In this document: positions 2,912 through 16,503 of the stretch, in pieces
Layout of the letters: each line of letters opens with the position of its first letter
How positions within the stretch are numbered: position 1 is the first letter of the stretch
Source of the DNA: Moraxella nasovis
Lineage (GTDB): Bacteria; Pseudomonadota; Gammaproteobacteria; Pseudomonadales; Moraxellaceae
Direction: 5' to 3'
Length of the DNA stretch: 32,000 nucleotides
Assembly: GCF_022701215.1 (NCBI RefSeq)
Contig: NZ_CP089976.1
Span: forward strand, 1,500,001-1,532,000
Position numbers and translations under genes: made by a program
The notes under the pieces: generated by a model
Database searches by the model: none
Told to the model about the DNA's origin: nothing
Seen by the model: only the letters and a program-made list of their open reading frames with translations

Positions 2912-3189
2912 GTAATTGCCCTTGTTGGCATAATGGACAGTAGATTTGTGATAGTATAGCAAATTTTGTCATAAAATTTTACTAAAATTTAGGATTTGTG
3001 TGGTGAAATAAAAATAAACGACGTGCTAGATTGGTCTTAAATCTTGCGTCATTTTTCTCAATATGTCAAGCTGATTATAGGTAAGATGTAGTTAAAACGA
3101 ATTTTTTGTCCTTAATTTTTTATCTTTAATAAAGATGAAAGTTTGTCTTATTATCAGGCTTTGGTGGTGTTTGGGGTGTGTTGTCGCCC

Positions 3190-3237
3190 TTGCCAAAATC
3201 TTGTCATGAATGGCTATCACAAATCTATATCAATCAT
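3190..3237 (-). pseudogene. Truncated doc (first ~16 codons, frameshifted)
   Basis: Aligns by eye with 12149-12196 (doc 5' end). It has a 1-nt deletion that creates a stop (MIDIDL*), and homology ends near 3190. Confidence 0.6.
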
Positions 3238-3368
3238 TTATCTGTTAATGCTTTAATCTTTTTTTTGTGGGTACTCATAACACGTTTGGCGGAATTTAAA
3301 ATTACTCGTTTTCCTGCTTCGCCTGTTAGGTGCATAATAACTGGTTTGGTGTTGGTGGGTTTGCTCAT
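3234..3368 (-). CDS. 44-aa putative antitoxin, second copy (orphan)
   Basis: Translation is MSKPTNTKPVIMHLTGEAGKRVILNSAKRVMSTHKKKIKALTDK*, about 90% identical to the 12193-12327 product. Its stop overlaps the ATG of the doc remnant (ATGA). Confidence 0.55.
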   Translation of the reverse strand: MSKPTNTKPVIMHLTGEAGKRVILNSAKRVMSTHKKKIKALTDK

Positions 3369-3386
3369 GGTGTTTTTCCTTGATTG

Positions 3387-3608
3387 TTAAGCTAAATCCG
3401 CCATTAGCTCGTCCAATGTATCAAATTTTACGCCTTTGCCGCTTGTTAATTCGTCTATCGCTTGGCGCGTCTCATCATTTGGTGTATAGGTAAATTGTAG
3501 GGCTTTTTCATAAGCACTATTTAGCACAAACTGCTCCACGCTCACGCTTTGGTGGTGGGCGATATGGGCGAAAATTTGGGCGATTTGCGGTGGCGAATCT
3601 AAAATCAT
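3387..3608 (-). CDS. RelB/DinJ-like antitoxin (73 aa), no cognate toxin in window
   Basis: The C-terminal TPNDETRQAIDELTSGKGVKFDTLDELMADLA resembles the DinJ/RelB C-terminal region. The N-terminus is compatible with a ribbon-helix-helix fold. Family assignment is from memory of these motifs. Confidence 0.5.
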   Translation of the reverse strand: MILDSPPQIAQIFAHIAHHQSVSVEQFVLNSAYEKALQFTYTPNDETRQAIDELTSGKGVKFDTLDELMADLA

Positions 3609-3644
3609 CTTGTGATCCTGTTAAATGCGTTCTTACCGCCTTAA

Positions 3645-3673
3645 ATTGTAGTAAACTAATAACCTAATGACAA
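3645..3673 (-). promoter_or_regulatory. Sigma70-like promoter of the remnant TA operon
   Basis: The minus strand reads TTGTCA-17 nt-TACAAT. The same arrangement is found at 12381-12409. Confidence 0.5.
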
Positions 3674-3789
3674 TAAAACCAATCTATGCCAAGCCATCGG
3701 CGGTTTAATGGCGTGGGAAATAAGGTGTCTTTATGATAAAGACGCCCATAAAAGACAGTTATACCAAAAGTGGTAACATAACAGGCAAG

Positions 3790-4049
3790 GGCGTGGGTGT
3801 CCTATCGACTCACGCCTTGCCATTTTGGCGGTTTCGCTTCCGTGCGTCTGCTAGGCTGATAAATGGATATTGTCCAAGGTTGGTATTTTGTTGTTTACTA
3901 AGATAGCGATAAGCAACTACTCATGATTGAACGCCTGTATATCTTACCCATAATTGCAAGTCGTTCATGTCGCTGTATTTGTCTGGGCGTGTGCGGGGTT
4001 ATTTGTCGGAGGGTTTTAGTTTTTTAATAGCGGTATCGGTTAAAGCCAT
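3790..4049 (-). pseudogene. Tyrosine integrase N-terminal fragment (frameshifted, truncated)
   Basis: The minus strand from ATG 4049 gives MALTDTAIKKLKPSDK*, then ..PDKYSDMNDLQLWVRYTGVQS.. and ..GQYPFISLADARKRN.. in other frames. These parallel MSLTDTALKRLKPSEK..PDKISDGNGLMVLIRHSGTKS..GKYPMISLAQARSEN of the intact integrase. Confidence 0.65.
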
Positions 4050-4147
4050 GAATGATAAGTTTTGGGCGTGCATTTGTTGGCACTATAATAAATGAACTAC
4101 AATACCAACAAAATTCATGGATTGCAATCCATCATCATGGATGCATA

Positions 4148-4229
4148 CAGACAACAAAACCGCCAAAACCCCATAAAACAAAAAGGTTGTCGGACAATGT
4201 CGGACAACCTTAGAGTAGAATATGGGGTG
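4148..4229 (+). repeat. 82-bp direct repeat (left copy), attL-side boundary of the main island
   Basis: 78/82 identical by eye to 16054-16135. It ends in tggggtg, which matches the last 7 nt of tRNA-His. A degenerate pseudo-tRNA 3' end continues to about 4245. It contains a copy of the hairpin terminator (4185-4209). Confidence 0.85.
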
Positions 4230-4296
4230 TAATGAACTTCACACATTTATTGTAAGTTATTGTATTTATTTAATATTTTATTTTAAATTTTTAATT

Positions 4297-4320
4297 ATAC
4301 CGTAAAATATACCGTAATTT
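4297..4320 (+). promoter_or_regulatory. Putative arm-type integrase binding sites (left arm)
   Basis: ATACCGTAA-aat-ATACCGTAA is the same 24-nt string as at 15996-16020 next to int. The function is inferred. Confidence 0.45.
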
Positions 4321-4762
4321 TACAAAGCAACCCCCATTTTTGATTAAATTTTAACCATTTTTAGCCCACTTCCTAACGATTGACAGCAGCCAATAAAAAG
4401 CGGTTATGGGTGTCAGATTTTCGCCTATTTGTGTAATTTTATGTAACTTTGTTTCAATGGATATTTTCGGAGAAAATTCCCAAACAAAAAATTTTTTTTA
4501 TGCGTGGGAAAAGGGGCGGTGTCCACTGGACGGGCTTTGTAATTTATCGCACACCCCCCGAACGGTGGGCGTGTTTTTTGTGGTGGGATTGGGCTTGATG
4601 GTGGGCGGTGCTTATGGATTGCCTGTTAATTGGTAAATGGGCTTGATATGGGGCGGGTGGTGGCATTCTAATGATAAAAGCCCCATCGTGTCGCCTTAAA
4701 TCTAGGTATTGCGTACTTTTCTATCATCACGCCATCAATGCACCGTATTACAACACTGCTAC

Positions 4763-5037
4763 AACATTAAAATAATTCAATTAATAATAAAACTTGATGA
4801 ATAAAATTTAATTTACCCTTTGTTTTTTTTATTTTTTTACCCTAAAAACCGTCCAAATTATCCAAATTATGAAAAAATACCCCTGTAAGCCTTACTACAT
4901 AAGGGCTTATAATTTGGATTTAAAATCCAAATGAAAACCAAATTATAAATATCTAAGCCAAATATTAAGCCCTTATCATCGTGCAAGCCTTTAATATCAA
5001 GGGGTTCATAATTTGGATAATGATTTTATAATTTGGA
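4763..5037 (+). repeat. Iteron-rich ~275-bp inverted repeat, left copy (IR-L)
   Basis: Reverse complement of 13514-13788, roughly 90-93% identical by eye. It holds 8 or more TCCAAAT/ATTTGGA heptamers and a perfect 21-nt palindrome, atttggatttaaaatccaaat, at 4914-4934. Confidence 0.85.
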
Positions 5038-5090
5038 TTGGTTGGATTGTTTGGGTAGTGTGTCAGCTGTGCCAAAGATTTAATGATGGG

Positions 5091-5330
5091 CAGGCGTGGG
5101 CGGTGGTTCACGCCTGCACTTTTGGCGGTGTTTTTTTTTGATATGGTGGATAGTAGGGCGGATTTGTTGCCATATTTGCCCCATTTTGGGGGTTTTTAGC
5201 GTGGTTTGGGGTTTAGGTGGTGTTATCCCCTTGCCAAATGCTAAAAGGGCTATTTGGGGTGTTTTAGGGCGTGAATAATGGGCAATAAAAAAACAAGGGG
5301 TATTTTGCCCCTTGTTATGGTGTGCTCGAT
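5091..5330 (+). repeat. Dispersed mosaic G/T-rich element, copy A
   Basis: Shares these modules with copies at 7857, 10640, 12490 and 14450: caggcgtg..cacgcctg hairpin, ttcacgcctgcacttttggcggtg box (5107-5130), gatttgttgccatatttgccccattttgggggtttttagcgtgg core, and a terminator. Confidence 0.8.
5286..5320 (-). terminator. Rho-independent terminator after the primase operon
   Basis: caagggg-tattttg-ccccttg hairpin at 5294-5314, with a T-run on the minus strand (A-run at 5286-5293 on plus). Identical hairpins lie at 10877-10897 and 13310-13330. Confidence 0.7.
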
Positions 5331-5341
5331 ATAGTTGGGAG

Positions 5342-7570
5342 TTAAGCGGTTAATAATATGGGGTTAAGTTCTATCACTCGTTTGGTGCGTCTATAACTTG
5401 GCATATCGACAAGGCAAACATAATTACCGTCGCTAAGTGTTTCTAAGGCGTTATCTAGCACCTGCACGGCTCGCAAATCTTTGGGTAGTGCTTGTTGTAG
5501 GCTTGAATAAAAAAACCTACCTACACCGTGATTGCTTGGCTTATAGGCGTTCTTGATAAGCCATTGTAATAATCGCTCTGCGTCTGTAATGTCGGTTACT
5601 ATCTCGCTATATCTGCGACGCTCCGCCATGGAATATTCAACGATTTTAATCGCCCCTAATATATCCGCTTCATCAATCGCACGACTACCCTTAAACCAAG
5701 CAAACAAGGTGGCAATGCGTGTGGCATTCTCTACCATGCGTGAAGCGTAAGCCTTGTAGTGTTCATTGATGCCGCCTTTGGTTTGGCTAACTTCTACCGC
5801 TTGCCAAAACTTTTCAGCGATAGCCAAGGCGGGGGCTTGCCATGCCATTTTTTTACGTTTTGCCCCTAGCTCTGGCAATGATAAAAAGTTATGGCATTTT
5901 TTCCAATAGGTTTGTAATGTGGGGTCATGCTCTGGGCTGTCTTTTATCAGCTGTCTTATACCCCTGTTATCAGGTGGAAAGGCAAATAAACAACGTGGTA
6001 ATAAGCCTTGATTGTTTAATTTAATGTCATTTAGGGCTGGTTTTAAGGCGACTTCTTGGGCGGATAAAAATAACGTCAAACGCACGTCATAGGCGGCTTG
6101 TGCGTTGCCATTGCTTATCGTGATACGTTCAGCTTTGCCGTGGCTGTATATGTCGCATAACGCACCAATAGAAGCCCCTGCCGTTTCTGATTTTAAACTT
6201 GCCCCTTCAAGTAAATTTGCCCCTTCGTCTATGGTGTAGCTGGCGTTTAAATAATTGCCATCGGTAAAGCCTTGCATGATTTTTTGAATTGAACCGCTCC
6301 CAAACATTGCCCTAGGGTCTTTGGGTAGGTGGTTTTGGTTTTTAAAGGCGGTCATCTCTTTTTTGGTTTTGCCCGCCATTTCATTTTCATAGCTTATTTT
6401 ATTTTCCATAAAGTCTTGATAGCTTTGTTTTTCATGGTCGTTAATGGCTTTGTGGGTAATTTTGATGGTTTGGGTTTTACCGCTCCCACTTTCGCCCTGT
6501 ACCATAAGATATAGGCTTGATGGGTTGTAGCCTTGGCTTAGGTAGGGTGCGTCTATGAACCCTTGTCCAATATGACTGATTGCACCTAGCACCCCAAAAC
6601 TCGCCATAGATAACGGCACTTGCCCATAATAGGCGGTGCGTTCTATTACATGGGCTAGGTCTTTTGGGAATGCGTCAAGTGGGAAAGGCGTTTCTACGTT
6701 TTTTACTTCATCAAATGGGATAAGCTCGCCCCATTTTTCGCTGTCTTTGGCGTTGTCGCCTGTGCTTGTGGTGGTGCTTTTGGCGGTCGTGCTGGCGTGA
6801 ATGCTGGTTAAATCATCGTTATTATTCACGCCTGCACTTTTGGCGTGATAGGCTTGTGCGTCCAAGCGTGGCAAGCCAAGGATTTTATCAATGATATGGC
6901 GGTCATCGTTGCCTTGTTGTCTTAAAATCTCTATATAATCAAATACATCAAAACCCTTTGGCATGATTTGGCTGGTGCTGGCGTGATACTCTTTGGCTAA
7001 TGTATCCACGTCTATCACGTCCACGCTTACACCCATCTCGTGTAGGCGTTGTGATAGCTCTGTTTGCCATTTGTCGCCCACATCGTCATAATCACGCCAT
7101 AACACCACATGACAGCCCATAAGGGGCGTTAAATCGGTGGTTTTTAGGCTCGTACTTGCTCCGCTTGTGGTGGCGGTTATGCCAAAGTTAGTTAATGCGT
7201 CTGCACATTTTTCGCCTTCCACAAAATACACCTTAGCAGGTTTTGGCATGGTGTTTTTATCCAGTAGGGGCAAATTATACAAAGGCTTTTTACCGTCTAT
7301 AAAGCGTGCTTTTGGTTCGCCCACATGAAAACCGCTGTTATCGTGATACATGGGCTTAATCCATTTATTGCCATCTTTGGCAAATCTAGGCTTAAAATAC
7401 AGTAAATGACCGTCTTTGTCGGTGTAGGCGTGAACGCCCCTAAAGTGGGCTTTTAGGTTAAAATTTAGCCCCTTAAACTGTCTATCACTTGCCATTAAAT
7501 GATTAAAAAGGGCTTGGATAAACTCAAAACTTAGTAAATCTTTCACACTAAGGCGGTTTTGCGTGTTCAT
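5342..7570 (-). CDS. Toprim-domain primase fused to a DUF3987-like P-loop NTPase (replicative primase/helicase of the island)
   Basis: The N-terminal Toprim signature is VYFVEGEKCADAL ... LWRDYDDVGD. A Thr/Ser/Asn-rich linker follows. The C-terminal Walker A is GESGSGKT, in a YfjI/DUF3987-like region. Confidence 0.8.
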   Translation of the reverse strand: MNTQNRLSVKDLLSFEFIQALFNHLMASDRQFKGLNFNLKAHFRGVHAYTDKDGHLLYFKPRFAKDGNKWIKPMYHDNSGFHVGEPKARFIDGKKPLYNLPLLDKNTMPKPAKVYFVEGEKCADALTNFGITATTSGASTSLKTTDLTPLMGCHVVLWRDYDDVGDKWQTELSQRLHEMGVSVDVIDVDTLAKEYHASTSQIMPKGFDVFDYIEILRQQGNDDRHIIDKILGLPRLDAQAYHAKSAGVNNNDDLTSIHASTTAKSTTTSTGDNAKDSEKWGELIPFDEVKNVETPFPLDAFPKDLAHVIERTAYYGQVPLSMASFGVLGAISHIGQGFIDAPYLSQGYNPSSLYLMVQGESGSGKTQTIKITHKAINDHEKQSYQDFMENKISYENEMAGKTKKEMTAFKNQNHLPKDPRAMFGSGSIQKIMQGFTDGNYLNASYTIDEGANLLEGASLKSETAGASIGALCDIYSHGKAERITISNGNAQAAYDVRLTLFLSAQEVALKPALNDIKLNNQGLLPRCLFAFPPDNRGIRQLIKDSPEHDPTLQTYWKKCHNFLSLPELGAKRKKMAWQAPALAIAEKFWQAVEVSQTKGGINEHYKAYASRMVENATRIATLFAWFKGSRAIDEADILGAIKIVEYSMAERRRYSEIVTDITDAERLLQWLIKNAYKPSNHGVGRFFYSSLQQALPKDLRAVQVLDNALETLSDGNYVCLVDMPSYRRTKRVIELNPILLTA

Positions 7571-7596
7571 TTGTCTTGTTTTCCTGTTATCTTATC

Positions 7597-8157
7597 TTAA
7601 ATATCTAAATTCAAATCACGGCAAGCGGTCAAAAAGTCGCAATTATGATAACGCTGGTAAAAATCAAGCACATCGCCACCACTCGCCCCACACCCAAAAC
7701 AAAAAAACGCCCCTGTTTGGCGGTTAATACTTAGGCTTGGTGTTTTGTCGCCATGAAATACGCATTTTACGTTAGTTTGATTGCCTTTTAGGGCAATGCC
7801 ATAACGTGCGTAAAAGCTCACTGGGTCGGGTTTATTGTCCGTGTTCATGCGTTTTTGTGGGCGGTTTTGGCTTGCATTGCTATAGGGCAAATGATAAGGC
7901 GGATTTGTCGCCATATTTGCCCCATTTTGGGGGTTTTTAGCGTGGTTTTGGGCGTGGGTGGTGTTACCCCCTTGATGGGGGTTAAACGTGCCATTTTGGG
8001 CGGTTTTGGCGGTCGTGCTGGCGTGAGTGTTGTTATTTGAACAGTTGTCCACGCCTGCACTATTTGCCCCATTTGTCGCCCTGTCGGTGGTGGGCTTTTG
8101 TGAACCAAACAAGCCTTGATTAAAAAATGATGGTCTTTTAAAGAATGAATGGCTCAC
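7597..8157 (-). CDS. CHC2 zinc-finger primase-like protein with a low-complexity N-terminal extension
   Basis: The C-terminal CVFHGDKTPSLSINRQTGAFFCFGCGASGGDVLDF is a DnaG-type CHC2 finger. GTG 8157 is preceded by the SD AAGGGGGT. An alternative start at ATG 7848 would give an 83-aa finger-only protein. Confidence 0.75.
   Translation of the reverse strand: MSHSFFKRPSFFNQGLFGSQKPTTDRATNGANSAGVDNCSNNNTHASTTAKTAQNGTFNPHQGGNTTHAQNHAKNPQNGANMATNPPYHLPYSNASQNRPQKRMNTDNKPDPVSFYARYGIALKGNQTNVKCVFHGDKTPSLSINRQTGAFFCFGCGASGGDVLDFYQRYHNCDFLTACRDLNLDI
7857..8075 (+). repeat. Dispersed mosaic element, copy E (lies inside the long form of the zinc-finger ORF)
   Basis: Shares ttgcattgctatagggcaaatgataaggcg.atttgtc.cc.tatttgccccattttggg with copy D, and ccccttgatgggggttaaacgtgccattttgggcg with copy C. 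Confidence 0.75.
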
Positions 8158-8187
8158 GTTACCCCCTTGTTGTGCTTGATGATTGGT

Positions 8188-8568
8188 TTAGCCGTCTGAT
8201 ATGCTCACGGTCTTAATGAATGCTTGTGCGGTCGGTAAGCTATTAGCATAATGCTGGGCTTGGGTCTCATCATCAAAATAATGACAAGCCATAACAAAAT
8301 GCTTAGGCTTACCAGTACCGAACATCACGCCATTTGGGATAAATGGGGCAATGTCTTTAAAACTTACATGATTGCACGGCTGGAAAGGCGGTTTATTGCC
8401 ATCGTTGCCATTATTGATAAATCTTGTATGCTTATAGCCTGTAATGTCGGCGTTGGGATAATCTAGCTTGACTTGTTCAAGAAATACCAAGGCACTTTCT
8501 TTGTTGGCGAACTCTTTGTAAATCCGTGGATTGTTACAGCTTATTGAATAGTAGATAACTTCAATCAT
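8188..8568 (-). CDS. Hypothetical protein (126 aa)
   Basis: Long ORF translationally coupled to the upstream gene (ATGA overlap, SD AAAGGGGGTG). No family recognised. Confidence 0.6.
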   Translation of the reverse strand: MIEVIYYSISCNNPRIYKEFANKESALVFLEQVKLDYPNADITGYKHTRFINNGNDGNKPPFQPCNHVSFKDIAPFIPNGVMFGTGKPKHFVMACHYFDDETQAQHYANSLPTAQAFIKTVSISDG

Positions 8569-8819
8569 TTTACACCCCCTTTGGTGGTATTATTGACGGC
8601 TGGCGTGTCGGCGGTTAATCGCTCTAAGGCTTGGTTAAGTTCTGTTTGGGCGGTCTCTACTGCTTGCCATATCAGCATTATCATGGCTTTAGTGCGGTCT
8701 AGCTCTGTACCCGTATCCATGCCATGATACAGAAAATAAACCCCCGCTAATGCGTCATCTAGGGCGTTTTTTGCGTCTTCTATGTCAAATAAAACATTGC
8801 TATGGTTATTAAGGCTCAT
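8565..8819 (-). CDS. Hypothetical protein (84 aa)
   Basis: ATGA overlap at both ends and SD AAAGGGGGTG. No family recognised. Confidence 0.6.
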   Translation of the reverse strand: MSLNNHSNVLFDIEDAKNALDDALAGVYFLYHGMDTGTELDRTKAMIMLIWQAVETAQTELNQALERLTADTPAVNNTTKGGVK

Positions 8820-9352
8820 TTTGCACCCCCTTTAATTGCGTTTAAAATGCGTTTTAAGGCACTTTTAGGCTTAGGTGGTGCATAGGTAGCACAAGGGGCG
8901 TTATCAAGCGATTTTAGGGCGTGTATGGCGTTATAAATGGCATTGGCACGCTCACAATAGCCGTTAAAGGGTTCTTGGGCGTGTAGCTCATTATAGCGGT
9001 GGTATTCGTCTGTTAAGACGGTTAGGGAATGGGATAAAATAGATTGGTTCATGTTGTAGTTACCTTTCGAAGTTTTGGAAAACACCCCAAAAATAGGGTG
9101 GGCTGGAAGTTCGAAAACCGCTACAACAACGGCGTGTGGTATTGGGTATTTCCACACCTTCCAACCCATAAGAAAGGCAACCGACAAAAAAGCGGTTAAA
9201 TTCTGATAGGCATAAAAAATCCAAGTATTTCGCCCTTGGTTGGCGGTTGTAAAGCAGTTTTCGACGCTGCGGGCGATATTCTGCAATACTGCTTGAATTT
9301 TATCAAGTGATAAAATTTCATCAAAAATACGTTTAATGTGAATTAAATTCAT
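8816..9352 (-). CDS. Hypothetical protein (178 aa; start uncertain)
   Basis: A 178-codon open frame in AT-rich DNA. ATG 9352 lacks an obvious SD. The internal ATG at 9052 (MNQSILSH..) is an alternative start. Confidence 0.5.
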   Translation of the reverse strand: MNLIHIKRIFDEILSLDKIQAVLQNIARSVENCFTTANQGRNTWIFYAYQNLTAFLSVAFLMGWKVWKYPIPHAVVVAVFELPAHPIFGVFSKTSKGNYNMNQSILSHSLTVLTDEYHRYNELHAQEPFNGYCERANAIYNAIHALKSLDNAPCATYAPPKPKSALKRILNAIKGGAK

Positions 9353-9436
9353 GCTATAATCTATCCATCTTGTTATCTTACCTAAACCGCTTTATCTGTC
9401 ATGGATAAGGCGGTTTTTGTATGGTAGGTGTGGCGG

Positions 9437-9655
9437 TTATTGTATGCTATCGCTTTCGTCTGCAAGCTCTTGTAAAATTTCGTGCTTGATGGCGTGAATG
9501 TCGCTCATCATGCCTTGGCAAATATGACGCATTTTTTTAATGCGTTTTTCGTGTTTGGATAGTTTTTTATCAAATCTTGCCAAAGTCTTGATAACATCGC
9601 TTAAATTCTCATCGCAAATTTTGGCGGTGCGTTGGGTGCTGGTGTTTTGTTCCAT
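9437..9655 (-). CDS. Hypothetical protein (72 aa, predicted helical and charged)
   Basis: ORF with SD aaagga upstream. An imperfect hairpin follows at about 9389-9417. Confidence 0.5.
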   Translation of the reverse strand: MEQNTSTQRTAKICDENLSDVIKTLARFDKKLSKHEKRIKKMRHICQGMMSDIHAIKHEILQELADESDSIQ

Positions 9656-9717
9656 GGTGGTTTCCTTTGGTTTTGGCTTGGTTAAAATGGGTTTGGGTTC
9701 TTAAAGTCTATTGGTGC

Positions 9718-9918
9718 TTATTTTTTACCAGTCCAATAGCCCCATTTTTGCATGGTATCTGTACCCCATATAAGCATATTCATATAACCATAGCCCGCTT
9801 TTTCGTTTAGTTTTACTAGCCTATTCCAAAAAGCATTTTCGCTTAGGCGTTTACCTGCTTTGGTGTAGGGTGTGATTTCGTGCATTTCTTGACGTGCTTT
9901 TTGCATTTTTGGGGTCAT
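9718..9918 (-). CDS. Hypothetical protein (66 aa)
   Basis: Tightly packed after 9920-10213, with SD aaggtaag. No family recognised. Confidence 0.5.
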   Translation of the reverse strand: MTPKMQKARQEMHEITPYTKAGKRLSENAFWNRLVKLNEKAGYGYMNMLIWGTDTMQKWGYWTGKK

Positions 9919-9919
9919 G

Positions 9920-10213
9920 TTACTTACCTTTTTTGGTGGTTTTGGTTTTGGGTTTATTTAAAATCTCTTCACGAAGTGCCATAGCTTTTACTTTGTCTTT
10001 GATGAAGTAGCGTTTAAAGCGTGAATTTTCGGTTTCGTGCCATTGCCAATCAATGATAAAACCTAGCTTTTTAAGCTCTGCAATACGGCTTGATAGGCTG
10101 ACCACGTTTAGCACGTTTACGGCATATAGGACGTGTACACCGTCGCCGTCTAGCATGGCTTGTAGTACTTGCCATTTTTGGCGGTTTTTGTGGGCGTGGG
10201 TAATGGGTATCAT
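9920..10213 (-). CDS. Putative winged-helix DNA-binding protein (97 aa)
   Basis: Strong SD (aaggag). The segment VVSLSSRIAELKKLGFIIDWQW resembles the HTH_39-type winged helix common in P4-like islands. Assignment is from memory of the motif. Confidence 0.5.
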   Translation of the reverse strand: MIPITHAHKNRQKWQVLQAMLDGDGVHVLYAVNVLNVVSLSSRIAELKKLGFIIDWQWHETENSRFKRYFIKDKVKAMALREEILNKPKTKTTKKGK

Positions 10214-10241
10214 GGTTTAACTCCTTATGGTCTGTTTGGGC

Positions 10242-10493
10242 TTATTGTTTGGCTTTGGGTTGGTATTGTGCCAAGTCGTCTGCACTTTCAAGGTTATCTA
10301 ACCACGCCAAAACATCGCTATTACGCCATGCACTCATGCTAGTAGATAGCTTGATGGGTTTTGGGAATTTGCCTTGTTTTATCCAGCCGTAAATCGTGGA
10401 TTTGGACAGCCCCACCATCTTGCAGACCTTATCAATACGGCTAATGCCTTTGGGGTGGAAAGTATCGTTTTGGGTTTGGGTGGTTTTGGTCAT
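10242..10493 (-). CDS. alpA: AlpA-family transcriptional regulator / excisionase-like (83 aa)
   Basis: ISRIDKVCKMVGLSKSTIYGWIKQGKFPKPIKLSTSMSAWRNSDVLAWL matches the AlpA/MerR-type HTH signature. The start is taken at ATG 10493, which has the SD ggag. Confidence 0.85.
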   Translation of the reverse strand: MTKTTQTQNDTFHPKGISRIDKVCKMVGLSKSTIYGWIKQGKFPKPIKLSTSMSAWRNSDVLAWLDNLESADDLAQYQPKAKQ

Positions 10494-10544
10494 TGGTTTA
10501 CTCCGTATGTGTTCATTTGGGCTTTGTCGCACTGTAAATAAGTT

Positions 10545-10573
10545 GCGTGCGAAAATTATAGGCGTGTACGAAA
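10545..10573 (-). promoter_or_regulatory. Candidate promoter of the alpA-to-primase operon
   Basis: The minus strand reads TTGTTG-17 nt-TATAAT, about 50 nt upstream of alpA. Confidence 0.45.
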
Positions 10574-10639
10574 ATAACAACAACGCAATACCCTGCTATC
10601 TGTACACTTAGGGGGGGTATCTATAAAAACGGAGTTTTA

Positions 10640-10925
10640 GGCGGTTAATGCAAAAAGGGCGAAACAGCAGGCGTGGGCGGTGTGTTTTTATCGTTCACGC
10701 CTGCACTTTTGGCGGTGTTGTTGTGATATGGTGGATAGTGGGGCGGATTTGTTGCCATATTTGCCCCCTTTTGGGGGTTTTTAGCGTGGTTTGGGTGGTG
10801 GGTGGTGTTACCCCTTGCCAAATGCCAAAAGGGTTATTTGGGGTGTTTTAGGGCGTGAATAATGGGCAATAAAAAACAAGGGGAATTTTGCCCCTTGTTT
10901 TGGTGTTGGTGTTGGTGGTGCGTGG
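10640..10925 (+). repeat. Dispersed mosaic element, copy B
   Basis: Near-colinear with copy A. The box is at 10694-10717 and the hairpin halves at 10668-10675 and 10696-10703. Confidence 0.8.
10870..10903 (-). terminator. Rho-independent terminator after the 267-aa gene
   Basis: caagggg-aattttg-ccccttg hairpin at 10877-10897. T-runs are present on both strands. Confidence 0.7.
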
Positions 10926-11729
10926 TTATTTGTCTTTTTGGGCTTTATGGGCTTTATGGGCTTTATGGGCTTCCCTTAATGTGCCATATATCCATTCATA
11001 TTTCTTGTTTTCTAGGTTGTCATGTATAAAAACATATTCGGCGGTTTGTGTGAAGTTAAAGCCCTTATCCTGCATGATTTTTAGGTATCTTTGTCCTAAT
11101 TGCTTTCTTTCTTGGCGGTGTGGTTCTGTTGCTTTTAGGGCGTTTTGTCGTCCTTGTTCGCTTTGTACTTGGCGGTGTATGTCTTCTTTGGTTTTATCGT
11201 CAATCATACCTAGCGTTAAAATTCTATCTTGTGGCAAGCCATGTAGATACTGCACACCGCCTAGCACTTTCAAGGCGTGATTTTTGAGTAAATGGGCGTA
11301 AAAGGGCTTTTTGCGGTCGTGGTAAATCTGTGCAAATTGCTTAAATACCAAATGCAATGTTACCATCTCAACCGCTCTTTGTCTGACCGCTGGCGGTGGT
11401 AGCTCTATATTTGGGTTAGCCTTGGCAAGGCAATAAAAAAGGTGGTCTATGGCGGTGCTAGGTGGTGTATTGGTGCGTATGTGGTTAAATAGGCGGGGGA
11501 ATTGATAGCCTTTGGTTTCTTGTTGTAGTTTTTGACAAATGGCGTGAATGTCTGTAATACAAGCGTGGCAATTTTGCCAAAATTCATCGAAATGACTAAA
11601 ATTGCCAAAAAATGAAAAGGCAATTTCTGCAAAATCTTGTTTACTCACGCCCATACCAATATCAAAAAAATCACCAAGTTTAAGGGAGTTAAATTCTTTG
11701 GCTAGTGCTTGAAATGTTTTGTTGTTCAT
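10926..11729 (-). CDS. Hypothetical cargo protein (267 aa from ATG 11729; 272 aa from ATG 11744)
   Basis: Long ORF with the SD aagg before ATG 11729. The C-terminus carries an (AHK)x3 repeat. No domain recognised. Confidence 0.65.
   Translation of the reverse strand: MNNKTFQALAKEFNSLKLGDFFDIGMGVSKQDFAEIAFSFFGNFSHFDEFWQNCHACITDIHAICQKLQQETKGYQFPRLFNHIRTNTPPSTAIDHLFYCLAKANPNIELPPPAVRQRAVEMVTLHLVFKQFAQIYHDRKKPFYAHLLKNHALKVLGGVQYLHGLPQDRILTLGMIDDKTKEDIHRQVQSEQGRQNALKATEPHRQERKQLGQRYLKIMQDKGFNFTQTAEYVFIHDNLENKKYEWIYGTLREAHKAHKAHKAQKDK
10940..10971 (+). repeat. Tandem 9-bp repeat gggctttat x3 (plus a partial copy)
   Basis: Seen directly. It encodes the AHKAHKAHK tail on the minus strand. Only two units are present in the orphan copy at 13361-13382. 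Confidence 0.85.
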
Positions 11730-11783
11730 CTCATACCTTACCATACCTTAAAAAAGATAGCAGGCGTGGCGGTCTAAGGTATG

Positions 11784-11805
11784 AAAAATAACCGCCTTTC
11801 GGTTA
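11784..11805 (-). terminator. Weak hairpin/T-run downstream of doc
   Basis: taaccg-ccttt-cggtta hairpin with a T-run on the minus strand. The stem is short. Confidence 0.35.
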
Positions 11806-11830
11806 ATTACTCCTAGCCTGCTAAAAGGGT

Positions 11831-12196
11831 TTAAACTGTTAAATCTTTTAAAATATCTGCAAGGTGGGTATAATTCATTTCACTGCTTGCCACTTTTACC
11901 ATCAAATCATCTAATCCGCTATTGGGGGCAATGTTAATACCTTGCATATCCAAATAAGTTAACATAACCACAAGGGCGGTTCTTTTATTGCCATCATTAA
12001 AGGCGTGTGCTTTGGCTAATGCTACGGCATAAAATGCCCCTATCAAATATACATTATCCAATGGCTCATAACTCATTTGATTGTCAATGCGTGATAAGCA
12101 ACTTTCAAGGCTTGCCATGCTTGCAATGCCCTTTAAGCCTTTTTCATTTGCCAAAATCTCGTCATGAATGGCTATCACAAAATGTATATCAATCAT
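11831..12196 (-). CDS. doc: Doc (death-on-curing) / Fic-family toxin
   Basis: 121 aa with the Doc-type Fic motif HAFNDGNKRTA. Confidence 0.85.
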   Translation of the reverse strand: MIDIHFVIAIHDEILANEKGLKGIASMASLESCLSRIDNQMSYEPLDNVYLIGAFYAVALAKAHAFNDGNKRTALVVMLTYLDMQGINIAPNSGLDDLMVKVASSEMNYTHLADILKDLTV

Positions 12197-12327
12197 TTAT
12201 CCGCCAATGCCTTAATTTCTTTTTTATGGGTATTCATAACACGTTTGGCAGAGTTTAAAATTACTCGTTTTCCTGCTTCACCTGTTAAGTGCATAATAAC
12301 TGGCTTGGTGTTGGTGGGTTTACTCAT
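12193..12327 (-). CDS. 44-aa putative antitoxin partner of Doc
   Basis: Translation is MSKPTNTKPVIMHLTGEAGKRVILNSAKRVMNTHKKEIKALADK*. Its stop overlaps the doc ATG (ATGA). It is not in the ORF track (<60 aa) and not recognisably Phd-like. Confidence 0.6.
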   Translation of the reverse strand: MSKPTNTKPVIMHLTGEAGKRVILNSAKRVMNTHKKEIKALADK

Positions 12328-12380
12328 GGTGTTTTGTTATCCTGTTAAAATTACGCTCGTATTTGTTTGGATTGCTTGAA

Positions 12381-12409
12381 ATTGTAGCAAACTAATAATC
12401 CAATGACAA
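12381..12409 (-). promoter_or_regulatory. Sigma70-like promoter of the antitoxin-doc operon
   Basis: The minus strand reads TTGTCA-17 nt-TACAAT. Confidence 0.55.
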
Positions 12410-12489
12410 TAAAAACCAATCCATGCCAAGCCATAGGCGGTTAATATGGTGTGGGGAAATAAGCTATTGTTATCACAACAATACCTACA

Positions 12490-12720
12490 AAAGGCGGTTA
12501 ATGCAAAAAGGGCGAAATGGCAGGCGTGGGCGGTGTGTTTTATCGTTCACGCCTGCACTTTTGGCGGTGTTTTTTTGATATGGTGGATAGTGGGCGTATT
12601 TGTCGCCGTATTTGCCCCATTTTGGGGGTTTTTAGCGTGGTTTGGGGTTTAGGTGGTGTTACCCCCCTTGATGGGGGTTAAACGTGCCATTTTGGGCGTT
12701 TTGGTGCGTTTTGATTGCGT
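12490..12720 (+). repeat. Dispersed mosaic element, copy C
   Basis: The box is at 12546-12569 and the hairpin halves at 12521-12528 and 12548-12555. The right end matches copy E rather than copies A and B. Confidence 0.8.
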
Positions 12721-12821
12721 TTTATAATTTTATGAAGTGCAAGGGTTGGATTTTGAATAATTTTCGGATAATAAAAAAGCCAAATTTTTAATATAATTTT
12801 TATGCAAAATGTATAAATTGA

Positions 12822-12850
12822 TTGACTTATAAGGTAGTTTAGAATATAAT
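12822..12850 (+). promoter_or_regulatory. Near-consensus sigma70 promoter
   Basis: TTGACT (12822-12827), a 17-nt spacer, then TATAAT (12845-12850). Confidence 0.65.
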
Positions 12851-12943
12851 ATAAACAACAAGGCAAGAGTTGCAGCTCTTGCCTTGTAGGCGGTAGATTG
12901 TTCATGCAATCTATTAAACCCACCAGTAGAAGGAGTAAAAGCG

Positions 12944-13009
12944 ATGAAGACTTTATTAAAAATCGCAATTATCCTTGTGTTATGTATCTTACTAAAATCT
13001 AGCAGTTAA
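12944..13009 (+). CDS. 21-aa hydrophobic peptide (type I toxin-like or leader peptide)
   Basis: Translation is MKTLLKIAIILVLCILLKSSS*. The SD aggag lies 8 nt upstream. The 5' UTR holds an 11-bp-stem hairpin (12859-12886). Confidence 0.5.
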   Translation: MKTLLKIAIILVLCILLKSSS

Positions 13010-13089
13010 GTCAAGCCATAGCACAACGACCGCCCTAGTGGTATCGGGGCGGTTCGCTACTAAGTGGAATATTTGAACAAGGTTAAATC

Positions 13090-13302
13090 ATGCCAAAAAT
13101 TATCAATACACCAAAAACACGCCTACAAATCCAAAAAGACAGCGATACCAAGCGGGGTATTAAGTCCATAGGTTTTAAAGTGCCTATTGAGTTTGCAAAC
13201 CGTCTTGATGAACTTGCCAAGCAAACAGGCAAAACTAAAAACATCATTATCATGGAGGCGGTGGAGCTATGGCAAGCCAACCATGCTAATAATGGGCAAT
13301 AA
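13090..13302 (+). CDS. Ribbon-helix-helix (CopG/Arc-like) DNA-binding protein (70 aa)
   Basis: IGFKVPIEFANRLDELAKQTGKTKNIIIMEAVELW fits the beta-alpha-alpha RHH pattern. It is co-oriented with the small peptide ORF. Confidence 0.6.
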   Translation: MPKIINTPKTRLQIQKDSDTKRGIKSIGFKVPIEFANRLDELAKQTGKTKNIIIMEAVELWQANHANNGQ

Positions 13303-13385
13303 AAAAAAACAAGGGGTATTTTGCCCCTTGTTATGGTGTTGGTGGTGCGTGGTTATTTGTCTTTATGGGCTTTATGGGCTTATTC
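13290..13385 (+). repeat. Orphan copy of the terminator plus 3'-end block of the 267-aa gene
   Basis: Aligns by eye with 10861-10975. It includes the hairpin at 13310-13330, ggtggtgcgtggttatttgtct, and two gggctttat units. Only about 8 terminal codons remain before an in-frame stop. Confidence 0.75.
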
Positions 13386-13513
13386 CCATGCTATCAAGCC
13401 ATTTTGTAACGCTCATTACCGCCCCTTTGTCGGTGTTTGGGCTTGCCTTGATAGTATCATTTTATAGTATCAAATGATGATACTAAATGCCAACCCTTTA
13501 CCAATTCCCACCG

Positions 13514-13788
13514 TCCAAATTATAAAACCATTATCCAAATGATGAAACCCTTGATATTAAAGGCTTTCATGATGAATAAGGGTTAATATTTGGATTAAAT
13601 ATTTATAATTTGGGTTTCATTTGGATTTTAAATCCAAATTATAAGCCCTTATGTAGCAAGGCTTACAGGGGTATTTTTCCATAATTTGGATAATTTGGAC
13701 GGTTTTTAGGGTAAAAAATAAAAAAAAATAAGGGGTAAATTAAATTTTATTCATCAAGTTTTATTATTGATTGAATTATTTTAATGTT
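13514..13788 (-). repeat. Iteron-rich ~275-bp inverted repeat, right copy (IR-R)
   Basis: Reverse complement of 4763-5037. Confidence 0.85.
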
Positions 13789-13919
13789 TTGTGCTATGTC
13801 AATACATAATAATAAAAAAGTACGCAACGCCCACACTTAACCGCCCATCATGTCGCCATTTAATAAAATAGGGTCATGCTGGGCAAGGCGTGGCGGTGTA
13901 GTGGTGGCTTTTACTGAAA

Positions 13920-14220
13920 ATTTAGTAAACGCCCACGATTTTTTACAATTTACCGCCAAAAGTACAGGCGTGAACCGTGAATAAATATAAATAATCATAT
14001 AAAAATTAGTATCGCTTAATAATAAAAAATTTCGCCCCGCAAAGACGGCAAAAAATCTAAATCACGCTACTAAAAAACACAACAAGCCAACCGCCAAAAA
14101 AACACTCCGCCCTTTGGCTCAAAAATGGGCAAAAGTCCGCCCACGCCAGCACCGCCAAAAAGCGATGATAGGGCGGTAAAATCACAAGGGCAAAAGGCAA
14201 GGGAAAAACACCAAAACAGA
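13920..14220 (-). repeat. Partial inverted copy (F) of the mosaic element (C/A-rich on the plus strand)
   Basis: accgccaaaagtacaggcgtgaac at 13951-13974 is the reverse complement of the 24-nt box with 1 mismatch. Box fragments such as cgcccacgcc and caccgccaaaa follow. The similarity is patchy. Confidence 0.5.
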
Positions 14221-14400
14221 CAAGGATTATTTAATAATATAAATAATAATTAAATAATATATTTATTATTTTTATTTAATTTGGGGGTTTTCTCGCGCGC
14301 GTGCGTGATGGCAAATTTTTATATATGTAATAATATAACATAACATATATTATATTAAATAATAATATATTTATGTTATATTTTATTTATTATTATTTTA
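14221..14400. other. AT-rich block with an alternating CG core (candidate DNA-unwinding element or origin)
   Basis: Two stretches of almost pure A/T (14228-14280 and 14318-14400) flank ttctcgcgcgcgtgcgtgatgg. A 12-bp inverted repeat, aatataacataa / ttatgttatatt, lies at 14332-14343 and 14371-14382. Confidence 0.45.
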
Positions 14401-14449
14401 TGGTTTTTTATGGGGGCTTTGTGATTTGTTGGGGTGTTTGCCTTGATTT

Positions 14450-14630
14450 GTGGGCGTGGGCGGTGTTTTGTTGGTTCACGCCTGCACTTTTGGTGGTGGT
14501 GTTGTGGTATGTCGGTGGTTTTGGTTTGCATTGCTATAGGGCAAATGATAAGGCGTATTTGTCACCGTATTTGCCCCATTTTGGGTTAAATATCAAAAAG
14601 GGGCGAAATGGCAGGCGTGGCGGTCATTGC
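14450..14630 (+). repeat. Dispersed mosaic element, copy D (overlaps the integrase stop codon)
   Basis: The box is at 14475-14498. It shares the ttgcattgctatagggcaaatgataaggcg module with copy E. Confidence 0.75.
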
Positions 14631-15967
14631 ATTCCTTTGATTTCTAATAGCTCCGCTTGGTGCGTGGCAAGCTCGCCATGCAAAATTGCACCATTTTTAT
14701 AAATCCGCCCTAAAAATAACGCCAAATCATCGCTTGAACCATCGGCAGTTAGACGCTTTCGGTAGGTGCTAAAATCTCCGTCTTTGATTTCATCGACAAT
14801 ATCCGCCCATTCTTTCATCATCTGCATTCTTTTGGGTATCATGTCGGCGTGGTTGTAGGCTCGTTCGGTCTTATCCTTGCTAACGTGTGCCAACTGCAAT
14901 TCAATGGCTTTGGGGTTGTACTGCATTTCATAAAGGGACGTACTAGCCAAACCACGAAAGCCGTGCCCTGTCATTTTGTCTTTGTAGCCCATGCGTTTTA
15001 GGGCGGTGGTTAGGGCGTTGGGCGATAGGGTTTCACGCTGTTTACTGCGATTGCTAAAAAACACAAATTCATCATGTAACCGCCATTCTTTAATTGTTTG
15101 CAAAATCTCTATTACTTGTGGGGCAAGCGGTACAACGTGCGTATTACGGCATTTCATGCGTTCGGGCGGTATCGTCCAAAGGCAAGTATTAAAATCAATT
15201 TCCACCCATCGCATACCAAACAGCTCATTAGTTCGCACGAAAGTATAAGCCATCACATAAAACGCATATTTGGTTAATGGCTCTAAATTGGCGTTGTCAA
15301 TGTCTGCTAGTAGCTTTGGTAGCTCGGTAATTTTTATGCGGGGGTAATTAGTTTGTTTGTGTTCAACCAATGATTTATGAATACCCCTTGGAATGGGATT
15401 TAATAGATTTGGGGCAAGCCCTTTAATGATGGTGTGTTCAAATATCGCACTTATCCAGCTTACCGCCTTATGTGCCATGTTGGTTTTGCCATTTAATGCC
15501 AAGCGGTCATGCACCGCTAGCACGTCCGATAATTTGACGTGATAAATGTTCATATTTCCCAAAATGGGCTTGATATGGTTTTTGTAGGCGTTGCTGTCTC
15601 GTTTAAAGGTGGCAGGGTTAATGCGTTTTTCTTGGTGCTGTAGCCATATTTGGGCGAAATGGTCAAAGTCTAGGGTGTCTTTTTGCTTGGCTTTTTGGCG
15701 TTCGTCTTTGGGGTTTATGCCTTGGCTTGCCAGTTCACGAATGCGGATATTTTCGCTTCGTGCTTGTGCTAGGCTTATCATGGGATACTTGCCTATGGTA
15801 ATTTCTTGTGTTTTGCCATTAAAAGAATAGGCACTAATAAATGACTTTGTTCCACTATGCCTAATCAGTACCATCAAGCCGTTACCGTCTGAAATTTTAT
15901 CGGGGCGGTTGGCGGTGCATTTTTCGCTAGGTTTTAGGCGTTTTAGGGCGGTATCTGTCAGGCTCAT
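14624..15967 (-). CDS. int: P4-type tyrosine integrase (DUF4102 arm-binding N-terminus plus phage integrase catalytic domain)
   Basis: 447 aa. The N-terminus is MSLTDTALKRLKP..DGNGLMVLIRHSGTKSF. Catalytic-region motifs are HGFRGLASTSLYE and LAHVSKDKTERAYNH. It lies adjacent to a tRNA. Confidence 0.92.
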   Translation of the reverse strand: MSLTDTALKRLKPSEKCTANRPDKISDGNGLMVLIRHSGTKSFISAYSFNGKTQEITIGKYPMISLAQARSENIRIRELASQGINPKDERQKAKQKDTLDFDHFAQIWLQHQEKRINPATFKRDSNAYKNHIKPILGNMNIYHVKLSDVLAVHDRLALNGKTNMAHKAVSWISAIFEHTIIKGLAPNLLNPIPRGIHKSLVEHKQTNYPRIKITELPKLLADIDNANLEPLTKYAFYVMAYTFVRTNELFGMRWVEIDFNTCLWTIPPERMKCRNTHVVPLAPQVIEILQTIKEWRLHDEFVFFSNRSKQRETLSPNALTTALKRMGYKDKMTGHGFRGLASTSLYEMQYNPKAIELQLAHVSKDKTERAYNHADMIPKRMQMMKEWADIVDEIKDGDFSTYRKRLTADGSSDDLALFLGRIYKNGAILHGELATHQAELLEIKGMQ

Positions 15968-16020
15968 TTACGGTATAATTTAAAATTGAACTCATATACC
16001 GTAAAATATACCGTAATTTT
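15968..16020 (+). promoter_or_regulatory. Putative arm-type integrase sites (int-proximal arm)
   Basis: One inverted copy, ttacggtat (15968-15976), plus ATACCGTAA x2 (15996-16016). Confidence 0.45.
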
Positions 16021-16053
16021 TCATAGATTGCAATAAACCAATACGGACTAATG

Positions 16054-16135
16054 CAGACAACAAAACCGCCAAAACCCCACAAAATAAAAAGGTTGTCGGA
16101 CAATGTCGGACAACCTTAGAATAAAATATGGGGTG
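16054..16135 (+). repeat. 82-bp direct repeat (right copy), overlapping the tRNA-His 3' end
   Basis: 78/82 identical by eye to 4148-4229. Confidence 0.85.
16081..16115 (-). terminator. Rho-independent terminator downstream of tRNA-His (carried on the island end)
   Basis: ggttgtc-ggacaatgtcg-gacaacc hairpin at 16091-16115, with a T-run on the minus strand (16081-16090). Confidence 0.6.
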
Positions 16136-16205
16136 AGTAATGGGACTTGAACCCACGACAACCGGAATCACAATCCGGGGCTCTACCAACTGAGCTATAC
16201 CCACC
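16129..16205 (-). tRNA. tRNA-His (GTG)
   Basis: Folded by hand as a cloverleaf: extra G-1, anticodon loop TTGTGAT, T-arm GGTTCAAGTCC, encoded CCA. Confidence 0.9.
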
Positions 16206-16223
16206 ATAAAAAAATCAGGCAAA

Positions 16224-16300
16224 TGGCGCGCCTGGCAGGATTCGAACCTGCGACCACCCGCTTAGAAGGCGGATGCTCTATCCAACTGAGCTACAGGCGC
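16224..16300 (-). tRNA. tRNA-Arg (TCT)
   Basis: Acceptor gcgcctg/caggcgc, anticodon loop CTTCTAA, T-arm GGTTCGAATCC, encoded CCA. Confidence 0.88.
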
Positions 16301-16374
16301 TCTAGTGGTTAAATGCTGATACTGTAAATCAATATAAACATTACCAACAAAAAAAGCCGTCAAGGCCTTAAAAA

Positions 16375-16451
<77 letters not shown>

Positions 16452-16503
16452 AATTTACAACGTGTTTGCGATTTATTCATCACCGTATGTCGTTGTGGTG
16501 CGT

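Follow-up and report, generated by a model that had tools for sequence, protein, structure and literature searches.

What does it mean when the same short repeat lies in frame within two neighboring replication genes of one mobile element? The question is raised by a window of 32,000 nucleotides, the whole stretch of Moraxella nasovis DNA analyzed here (contig NZ_CP089976.1, positions 1,500,001 to 1,532,000), whose own numbering is used throughout. An island of ~12 kb in this window encodes a split primase: a primase-helicase of 742 aa (5342-7570, minus strand), with a phage DNA-primase-like N-terminal region and a C-terminal DUF3987, and, as a separate protein, a CHC2 zinc ribbon (186 aa, GTG start; 7597-8157, minus strand), hereafter the zinc-finger protein. 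The first-pass annotation of this DNA saw that the hairpin box of a repeat element is embedded in both genes and suggested an origin within a gene, much as the origin of phage lambda lies in gene O. Our best explanation, held with evenly balanced confidence from sequence comparison, is that the in-gene boxes are auxiliary copies of an island-specific system of cis-acting words, with the origin elsewhere. The comparison covers related islands fetched from M. bovis (L001, L009), M. bovoculi (L007), M. oculi (L008), M. marmotae (L199) and uncultured Moraxella (L200, L010, L011), as well as from SRA assemblies (L004, L076-78).

The two boxes share an identical 23-mer, TTTTGGCGGTCGTGCTGGCGTGA, present in exactly two copies, at 6778-6800 and 8004-8026, and in none of the shuffled sequences; the first position had been given correctly, while the second 23-mer (as 8005-8027) and the segment that follows it (as 8049-8061) had each been placed one base off. 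The inverted repeats are as described, with GGCGTGAA (6794-6801) pairing with TTCACGCC (6825-6832) and GGCGTG (8020-8025) pairing with CACGCC (8050-8055), and both segments are indeed translated as low-complexity peptides, HAKSAGVNNNDDLTSIHASTTAKS in the primase-helicase and NSAGVDNCSNNNTHASTTAKTAQ in the zinc-finger protein. The box of the primase-helicase gene (box P, 6773-6850, minus strand) lies in frame in the interdomain linker (aa 242-265, AGVNNNDDLTSIHASTTAK) and reads on its sense strand GCAGGCGTG, a 27-nt loop and CACGCCAGC. The box of the zinc-finger gene (7999-8070, minus strand) lies in the N-terminal linker (AGVDNCSNNNTHASTTAK) and has the same order with a loop of 24 nt. The arms of the two are identical at 23/23 and 15/17 positions and the loops have diverged, for an overall identity of 78% across 67 nt. 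Arms that remain near-identical around diverged loops appear constrained, which speaks against both chance and a recent duplication of the whole box. The string CACGCCTGCAC occurs in six copies, all within the island and on the plus strand only.

What related islands share is smaller than the box. In an unbiased k-mer scan of six related Moraxella islands, the 9-mer that ranked first among those shared was CACGCCTGC/GCAGGCGTG, and this word occurs 51 times in 55 kb of island DNA vs 3 times in 47 kb of flanks; within the window, AGGCGTG has just two copies in ~19 kb of flank. Enrichment is limited to Moraxella island loci, where L001-L011 have 3-15 copies apiece; nearly all other fetched loci have one copy or none. 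The sequence flanking the copies is unrelated from one to the next and unconserved. A 15-mer form, ACCGCCACGCCTGCC on the sense strand, is found exactly five times in M. bovis and once each in M. nasovis and M. marmotae, and inverted pairs are frequent only in M. nasovis, most copies elsewhere being single. Judging from these islands, what is conserved is the 9-bp word and not the hairpin. A search for a uniform strand polarity of the word gave none: M. bovis and L004 show a bias, and L007 and L199 are mixed. A Chi or DNA-uptake-sequence reading was rejected on the low density of the word in the flanks, and an AlpA-type element was rejected because the word is unrelated to GGGACG, the AlpA binding element of Pseudomonas aeruginosa (PMC9371919).

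The word is also overrepresented within genes beyond what the encoded proteins require. We compared the annotated coding sequence with 500 synonymous-codon shuffles that keep each protein and its codon usage. The window has six in-gene words, including the CACGCCAGC variant, vs 0.86 expected, a count reached in 0/500 shuffles; with perfect 9-mers only, there are two vs 0.31 expected, reached in 10/500. L001 has five in-gene words (0.26 expected) and L004 has six (0.28 expected), each reached in 0/500 shuffles, and the excess over synonymous shuffles amounts to 7-20 fold. The word is read in differing frames, as HAS, TPA or RQ, and all six M. nasovis in-gene copies are found in linkers, one variable loop or a C-terminal tail; in related islands, too, the primase and zinc-finger linkers contain it. 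Constraint on synonymous sites thus appears at the DNA level and not at the protein level, the opposite of the pattern that the annotation had set against its own suggestion. On these statistics, the word is kept at the DNA level in both the intergenic and the coding DNA of a Moraxella satellite family.

In the primase-helicase, the box forms an insertion of 12-19 residues where the alignment varies most, after the primase-like N-terminal half and ahead of DUF3987, and the word is found in this linker in four lineages that are largely independent. An inverted pair is present in M. nasovis, while M. bovis and L004 have GCAGGCGTGA, 15 nt and CACGCC. Between the latter two, whose genes are 77% identical, the residues of the arms share their codons in 6/6 cases (57% gene-wide), and the residues of the loop are conserved in 0/5. 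L199 carries an exact ACCGCCACGCCTGCC in the same linker and L200 carries it with one mismatch, i.e. ACCGCCACGCCTG(C/T). The linker of L076 (gene 189-2369) contains four direct copies of CACGCCAGC within ~60 nt, in three reading frames; no other compared island has four direct copies, and these could represent either iteron-like clustering or a product of slippage.

The zinc-finger protein raises the further question of whether its box is translated at all. Its homologues (153-233 aa) in M. bovis, M. bovoculi, M. oculi, M. ovis and several metagenomic assemblies have the order N-terminal motif, hypervariable low-complexity linker and Zn ribbon, which in M. nasovis corresponds to a conserved N-terminal peptide, a disordered linker and a ribbon at aa ~114-186. 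The first ~20 residues are conserved in 12 homologues, with the motif M..H..NRPLF..N.FF, and NCBI annotates the same 186-aa protein; translation from GTG 8157 is thereby upheld. The alternative start at ATG 7848 was rejected, since the N-terminal motif upstream of it is conserved and no Shine-Dalgarno sequence precedes it. Most of the extension is, as the annotation had recognized, a copy of the repeat element (copy E, 7843-8078, minus strand), translated as residues ~28-105 in a frame without stop codons. Translation had been argued from a strong Shine-Dalgarno sequence. The Shine-Dalgarno region (8159-8170, sense CAAGGGGGTAAC) recurs exactly within copy E at 7964-7975 and, with one extra base, in intergenic copy C at 12659-12671, so the strong Shine-Dalgarno sequence may itself be repeat-derived. 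In the AlphaFold model, every block of 10 residues within residues 1-130 has a mean predicted local distance difference test score below 50, and the first secondary structure comes no earlier than residue 112. The segments sit in hypervariable linkers in both genes, as seen in the homologue alignments, with the zinc-finger linker predicted to be disordered, and the suggestion that cis-acting DNA is tolerated in disordered coding regions gains support from the comparative and codon-level evidence.

The strongest support for replication-related cis sequences embedded in genes comes from an 18-nt core, CCCAAAATGGGGCAAATA, at 7914-7931 (minus strand; peptide PQNGAN). This core is exact in the zinc-finger linkers of L199 (M. 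marmotae) and L200 (uncultured Moraxella), as well as in four M. nasovis copies. Zinc-finger proteins of only 34-38% overall identity have equivalents of the linker peptide AKNPQNGANM, and identical residues around the core use the same codon in 10/10 cases vs 19/37 in the Zn-ribbon domain. The core contains AAAATGGGG, which is the iteron of the origin-like arrays of L199 and L200. In L199, the zinc-finger-linker segment has inverted intergenic copies that flank the iteron array on both sides, each 462-nt iteron unit there ending with the 9-bp word; in L200, too, the iteron units all include the word. An insertion of an intergenic element into the zinc-finger gene was also considered, a candidate that is weakened by the presence of the core in distant zinc-finger linkers.

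If the boxes are not the origin, where does replication start? The best candidate is an iteron/AT-rich module at 4763-5052, which has a guanine-plus-cytosine (GC) content of 26% and lies ~300 nt 3' of the primase-helicase stop codon at 5342. Six copies of the iteron ATCCAAATTAT with 0-1 mismatch (4851+, 4860+, 4909-, 4936+, 5008- and 5028-) form an array at 4851-5038, two on each outer side facing each other, with a GC fraction of 0.265 over 4800-4999. Staphylococcus aureus pathogenicity islands (SaPIs) have origins in which iterons flank an AT-rich centre immediately 3' of rep (PMC9371898). The array in the window has the features of an origin of the SaPI or phage-inducible chromosomal island (PICI) type, being directly downstream of the helicase open reading frame (ORF) and having at least six opposed iterons, at least two of them on either flank of the AT-rich centre, and this array (4851-5038) is most likely the origin proper. 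The same layout is found in M. bovis with TCTAAGTTAT iterons, and in M. marmotae and L200 with GGGGAAAAT iterons. A second, inverted copy of the module (13514-13788; 275 nt, 93%) lies on the side of the integrase gene (int) and pairs with 4763-5037. Such a long inverted repeat is present in four island lineages (128-283 nt, 89-100% identical, with lineage-specific iterons), with one arm on the integrase side and its partner 3' of the primase-helicase gene, at 5842-5969/12400-12527 in L001, 4245-4989/12840-13122 in L199 and 5789-6033/13205-13449 in L200. Because the iterons differ between lineages and the 9-bp word does not, the word is probably not read by a lineage-specific origin-binding domain.

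We propose that the in-gene boxes are copies, translated in frame, of a cis-acting repeat specific to the island, in which the selected unit would be the 9-bp word (with its 15-mer form), mostly arranged as an inverted pair in M. nasovis. The words would be putative binding sites for a conserved island-encoded protein, either a replication/priming factor or a global regulator, and the in-gene copies would be auxiliary members of this set of sites, tolerated within disordered linkers. In addition, the zinc-finger linker of M. nasovis holds the body of the repeat, including the 18-nt core that matches the M. marmotae-type origin-like iteron, and the origin would be at the 3' iteron array, with its second inverted copy on the int side. 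We infer the protein binding, and any role in replication, from the sequence facts, the evidence of translation and the statistics of DNA constraint described above.

Several observations weigh against this proposal. The island specificity of the word rests on the ~47 kb of flanks, which come from four species, and the lineages compared are few and partly non-independent, with codon-identity statistics that are modest (p ~0.001-0.03). The boxes are not universal: M. bovoculi-/M. oculi-type genes have only the CACGCC hexamer and L077 has none. Low-complexity linkers rich in A and C may produce CACGCC-type words by slippage, of which L076 is perhaps an example. Between two M. bovis strains (L001 9529-9990 vs L009 9511-9951), the zinc-finger linker shows an in-frame indel of 21 nt, and the deletion removes the CACGCC arm of the box, from which it follows that individual copies are dispensable. 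Finally, the ~200-nt body of the element has been amplified only in M. nasovis among the related islands compared, and selfish or neutral spread is thus possible.

A neutral or selfish exaptation, in which the repeat spread within the island, landed in frame in two disordered linkers and was merely tolerated, its in-gene copies having no role in cis, is a possibility on the unlikely side. This account would take up the confined amplification, the lineages without boxes and the M. bovis indel just described, together with the hypervariability of the linkers in both length and sequence. The repeat has these intergenic copies: copy A (5080-5330, after the primase gene terminator, with a box at 5090-5117 and a 10-nt loop), copy B (10640-10910, upstream of alpA), copy C (12490-12710) and copy D (14440-14624, including an exact 15-mer, GGCAGGCGTGGCGGT, at 14610-14624 that abuts the int stop codon), all on the minus strand, plus an inverted half-box (13952-13976, plus strand) that is 96% complementary to 5105-5129 and belongs to the int-side arm of the large inverted repeat. 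The part of the extension at 7856-8009 matches intergenic copies: copy C at 93% identity across 113 nt, copy D at 92% across 76 nt. Copy E looks adapted to translation, as it is free of stops in the zinc-finger frame and has CAC where copies A and C have TAA, and a Cys codon TGC reads AGC in both in-gene copies; to this extent, the annotation's alternative of an element exapted as coding sequence holds in part. Against neutrality, transposition cannot spread a 9-bp word whose flanks are unrelated, the excess over synonymous shuffles is seen in three islands, synonymous positions are kept across proteins of ~38% identity, and the arms of the M. nasovis boxes have stayed near-identical while their loops diverged. 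Nor does the element behave as a mobile palindrome of the repetitive extragenic palindrome (REP), miniature inverted-repeat transposable element (MITE) or Rickettsia palindromic element (RPE) kind, since its body is found only inside the M. nasovis island and the part shared with other islands is a 9-mer with unrelated flanks.

A bolder form of our proposal would have both the 9-15-bp word and the origin-iteron-like 18-mer written into the linkers of the split primase, such that the genes carry putative sites for their own machinery, the free-standing Zn ribbon, which is the module conserved best, could read the word, and the element would use dispersed cis-sites rather than a single origin. 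We regard this as unlikely.

That the origin itself lies inside a gene, with the boxes as the origin or an essential part of it and bound by the primase-helicase, seems quite improbable. There is a precedent in phage N15, in which RepA is a primase-helicase-initiator and the origin lies within repA (PMC4165912), and, as in N15 and lambda, the cis-acting repeats in M. nasovis lie in a part of a replication gene that is translated and poorly conserved. The match of the 18-nt core to the L199/L200 iteron, the inclusion of the word in each iteron unit of those two islands and the four direct CACGCCAGC copies in the L076 primase linker would also fit. The analogy to lambda O extends only this far, for the M. 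nasovis genes have one inverted pair each and no iteron cluster, and no AT-rich stretch was found beside the in-gene boxes, where the GC fraction is 0.42-0.51 over 6600-8199. The suggestion of an origin in the gene fails further on the scattering of the same word over ~10 kb of island and on the separate, canonical iteron/AT-rich array 3' of the primase-helicase gene, which four lineages have. In addition, the word is identical where the origin-like iterons differ, and the sites of an initiator normally co-vary with the initiator.

Might the hairpin act through its structure, as RNA or single-stranded DNA? It would then be an antisense (plus-strand) terminator, an mRNA stabiliser or a single-strand priming signal, which we consider very improbable. 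As single-stranded DNA the boxes do fold stably, at -7 to -15 kcal/mol, with z-scores of -3.0 to -4.3 in 6/7 and of -2.2 in copy D. On the plus strand each box is followed by ACTTTTGG, and four element copies have a second small hairpin with a T run (CCCCATTTTGGGGGTTTTT). A remnant variant box at 3784-3822 (GGCAAGGGCGTG...CACGCCTTGCC) has matching A/T insertions in its two arms. All seven variant boxes listed lose pairing, in that every arm change lowers it and none compensates, and the word is single and partnerless in most related islands; base pairing as such is poorly supported by these sequences. The loops span 10-42 nt across boxes and the T run is short. An intrinsic terminator was rejected because loops of 10-27 nt are too long for such a terminator, which has a GC-rich stem, a loop of 3-8 nt and a T run right after it, and the terminator scan calls no box. 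A search of Rfam (E-value mode, 3000-16500) matched no family to the repeat element, all matches other than tRNA being below threshold (E 0.005-0.9). A short linear motif acting in the proteins, AGV(N/D)...HASTTAK, common to the two primase subunits, is hardly tenable, for although the frame and peptide are the same in both proteins and AGVN...HA recurs in the M. bovis zinc-finger and primase linkers, the same DNA stands untranslated in at least four intergenic copies, the word is elsewhere read in other frames (TPA or RQ) and synonymous sites are conserved.

How do these arrangements compare with known replication modules and repeats? The set of integrase, alpA and primase-helicase, the AT-rich centre that opposed iterons surround directly downstream of the helicase gene, and the lineage specificity of the iterons all resemble the SaPI/PICI replication module (PMC9371898). 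The Moraxella islands differ in their DUF3987-type helicase, in the split primase with its Zn ribbon as a separate protein, in the duplication of the iteron module as a long inverted repeat on the int side, and in the family-wide 9-bp word dispersed through the island, genes included. M. nasovis differs from lambda O and N15 in that iteron cluster and adjacent AT-rich stretch are missing from its genes, that the same word occurs all over the island and that there is a separate, canonical candidate origin. The satellite phage P4 has two separated cis regions, ori and crr, with iterons for its alpha protein. Like P4, the Moraxella satellites code for their own primase-helicase and have two iteron-bearing copies of a module several kb apart; unlike in P4, the copies form a long inverted repeat, and there is no sequence homology or demonstrated protein homology to P4 alpha. 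Rickettsia palindromic elements are palindromic repeats inserted in frame in genes, and they share with the M. nasovis repeat an occurrence both between genes and in frame in coding sequence, where it is translated as an extra peptide. The differences are that, in the DNA examined, the M. nasovis repeat is found only within one ~12-kb island, that the conserved part is 9-18 bp, and that synonymous sites are conserved across divergent islands. The KorB sites of IncP plasmids constitute the dispersed operator set of a global plasmid regulator, and the ~10 copies of a short site scattered over a mobile element, both intergenic and intragenic, are similar to such a set; the word differs from KorB sites in being asymmetric and only sometimes paired.

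The 742-aa ORF at 5342-7570 (minus strand) is identical to an M. nasovis protein in a protein comparison, and the surrounding genes define the kind of element in question. The island is bounded by att-like direct repeats of 116 nt, of which the left (4114-4229) is 87% identical to the right (16020-16135), and the latter adjoins tRNA-His. In addition to the two primase genes, the minus strand codes for a tyrosine integrase (int, 14624-15967), an AlpA-family regulator/excisionase (alpA, 10242-10583), a winged-helix protein and several ORFs without a family match. The hallmarks of Gram-negative PICIs are present in the integrase, alpA, primase/replication gene, att repeats and a size within ~10-15 kb; no capsid, terminase or redirection gene was found among the ten island ORFs scanned with Pfam and PHROGs. 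By this gene set, the island is a Gram-negative PICI-like satellite. Searches beyond the islands returned little: blastn of the repeat element against phage and plasmid collections gave zero matches, pattern scans of viral contigs gave one unrelated GC-rich match for the 17-mer and >120 single chance matches for the 15-mer, a PDB sequence search with the primase alignment matched nothing, and a search of the literature on the 9-mer or on Moraxella PICIs turned up nothing relevant.

Some further features of the locus are recorded here. A single 15-mer word with one mismatch (11759-11773, minus strand) lies just upstream of the ORF at 10926-11744 (272 aa) and has the inverted repeat CATACCTTA/TAAGGTATG on its two sides; the stretch at 11745-11810 is nearly identical in L010 (~7212-7270), a Moraxellaceae metagenome-assembled genome, and looks like an operator. 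A 9-nt tandem repeat, GGGCTTTAT, recorded at 10938-10972 and 13360-13381, is present in four units that code for the KAHKAHKAH tail of the same ORF, and two extra units follow the terminator at 13306-13332. A terminator hairpin, AACAAGGGGCAAAAT(A/T)CCCCTTGTT with a T run, occurs three times in the island (5292-5316, 10878-10895 and 13308-13332), the first two being the upstream ends of element copies A and B. To the left of the att repeat, 3000-4114 is a remnant of a second related island, in which 3221-3376 is 90% identical to 12180-12335 and resembles a toxin-antitoxin module. Within the ORF at 8816-9352, the segment 9093-9166 (minus strand) has a weak match to the Rfam family sRNA-Xcc1 (E = 0.02; 32 bits vs a gathering score of 53, hence sub-threshold).

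If the word is functional, it would be a clear instance of dual coding, in which a DNA signal is held by selection inside protein-coding sequence, and a mobile element would be storing its cis-acting sites in disordered linkers. The islands themselves constitute a previously undescribed family of PICI-like Moraxella satellites, members of which occur in the livestock pathogens M. bovis, M. bovoculi and M. ovis, with hallmarks in an easily searched sequence signature, a split primase and a two-copy inverted origin-like module.

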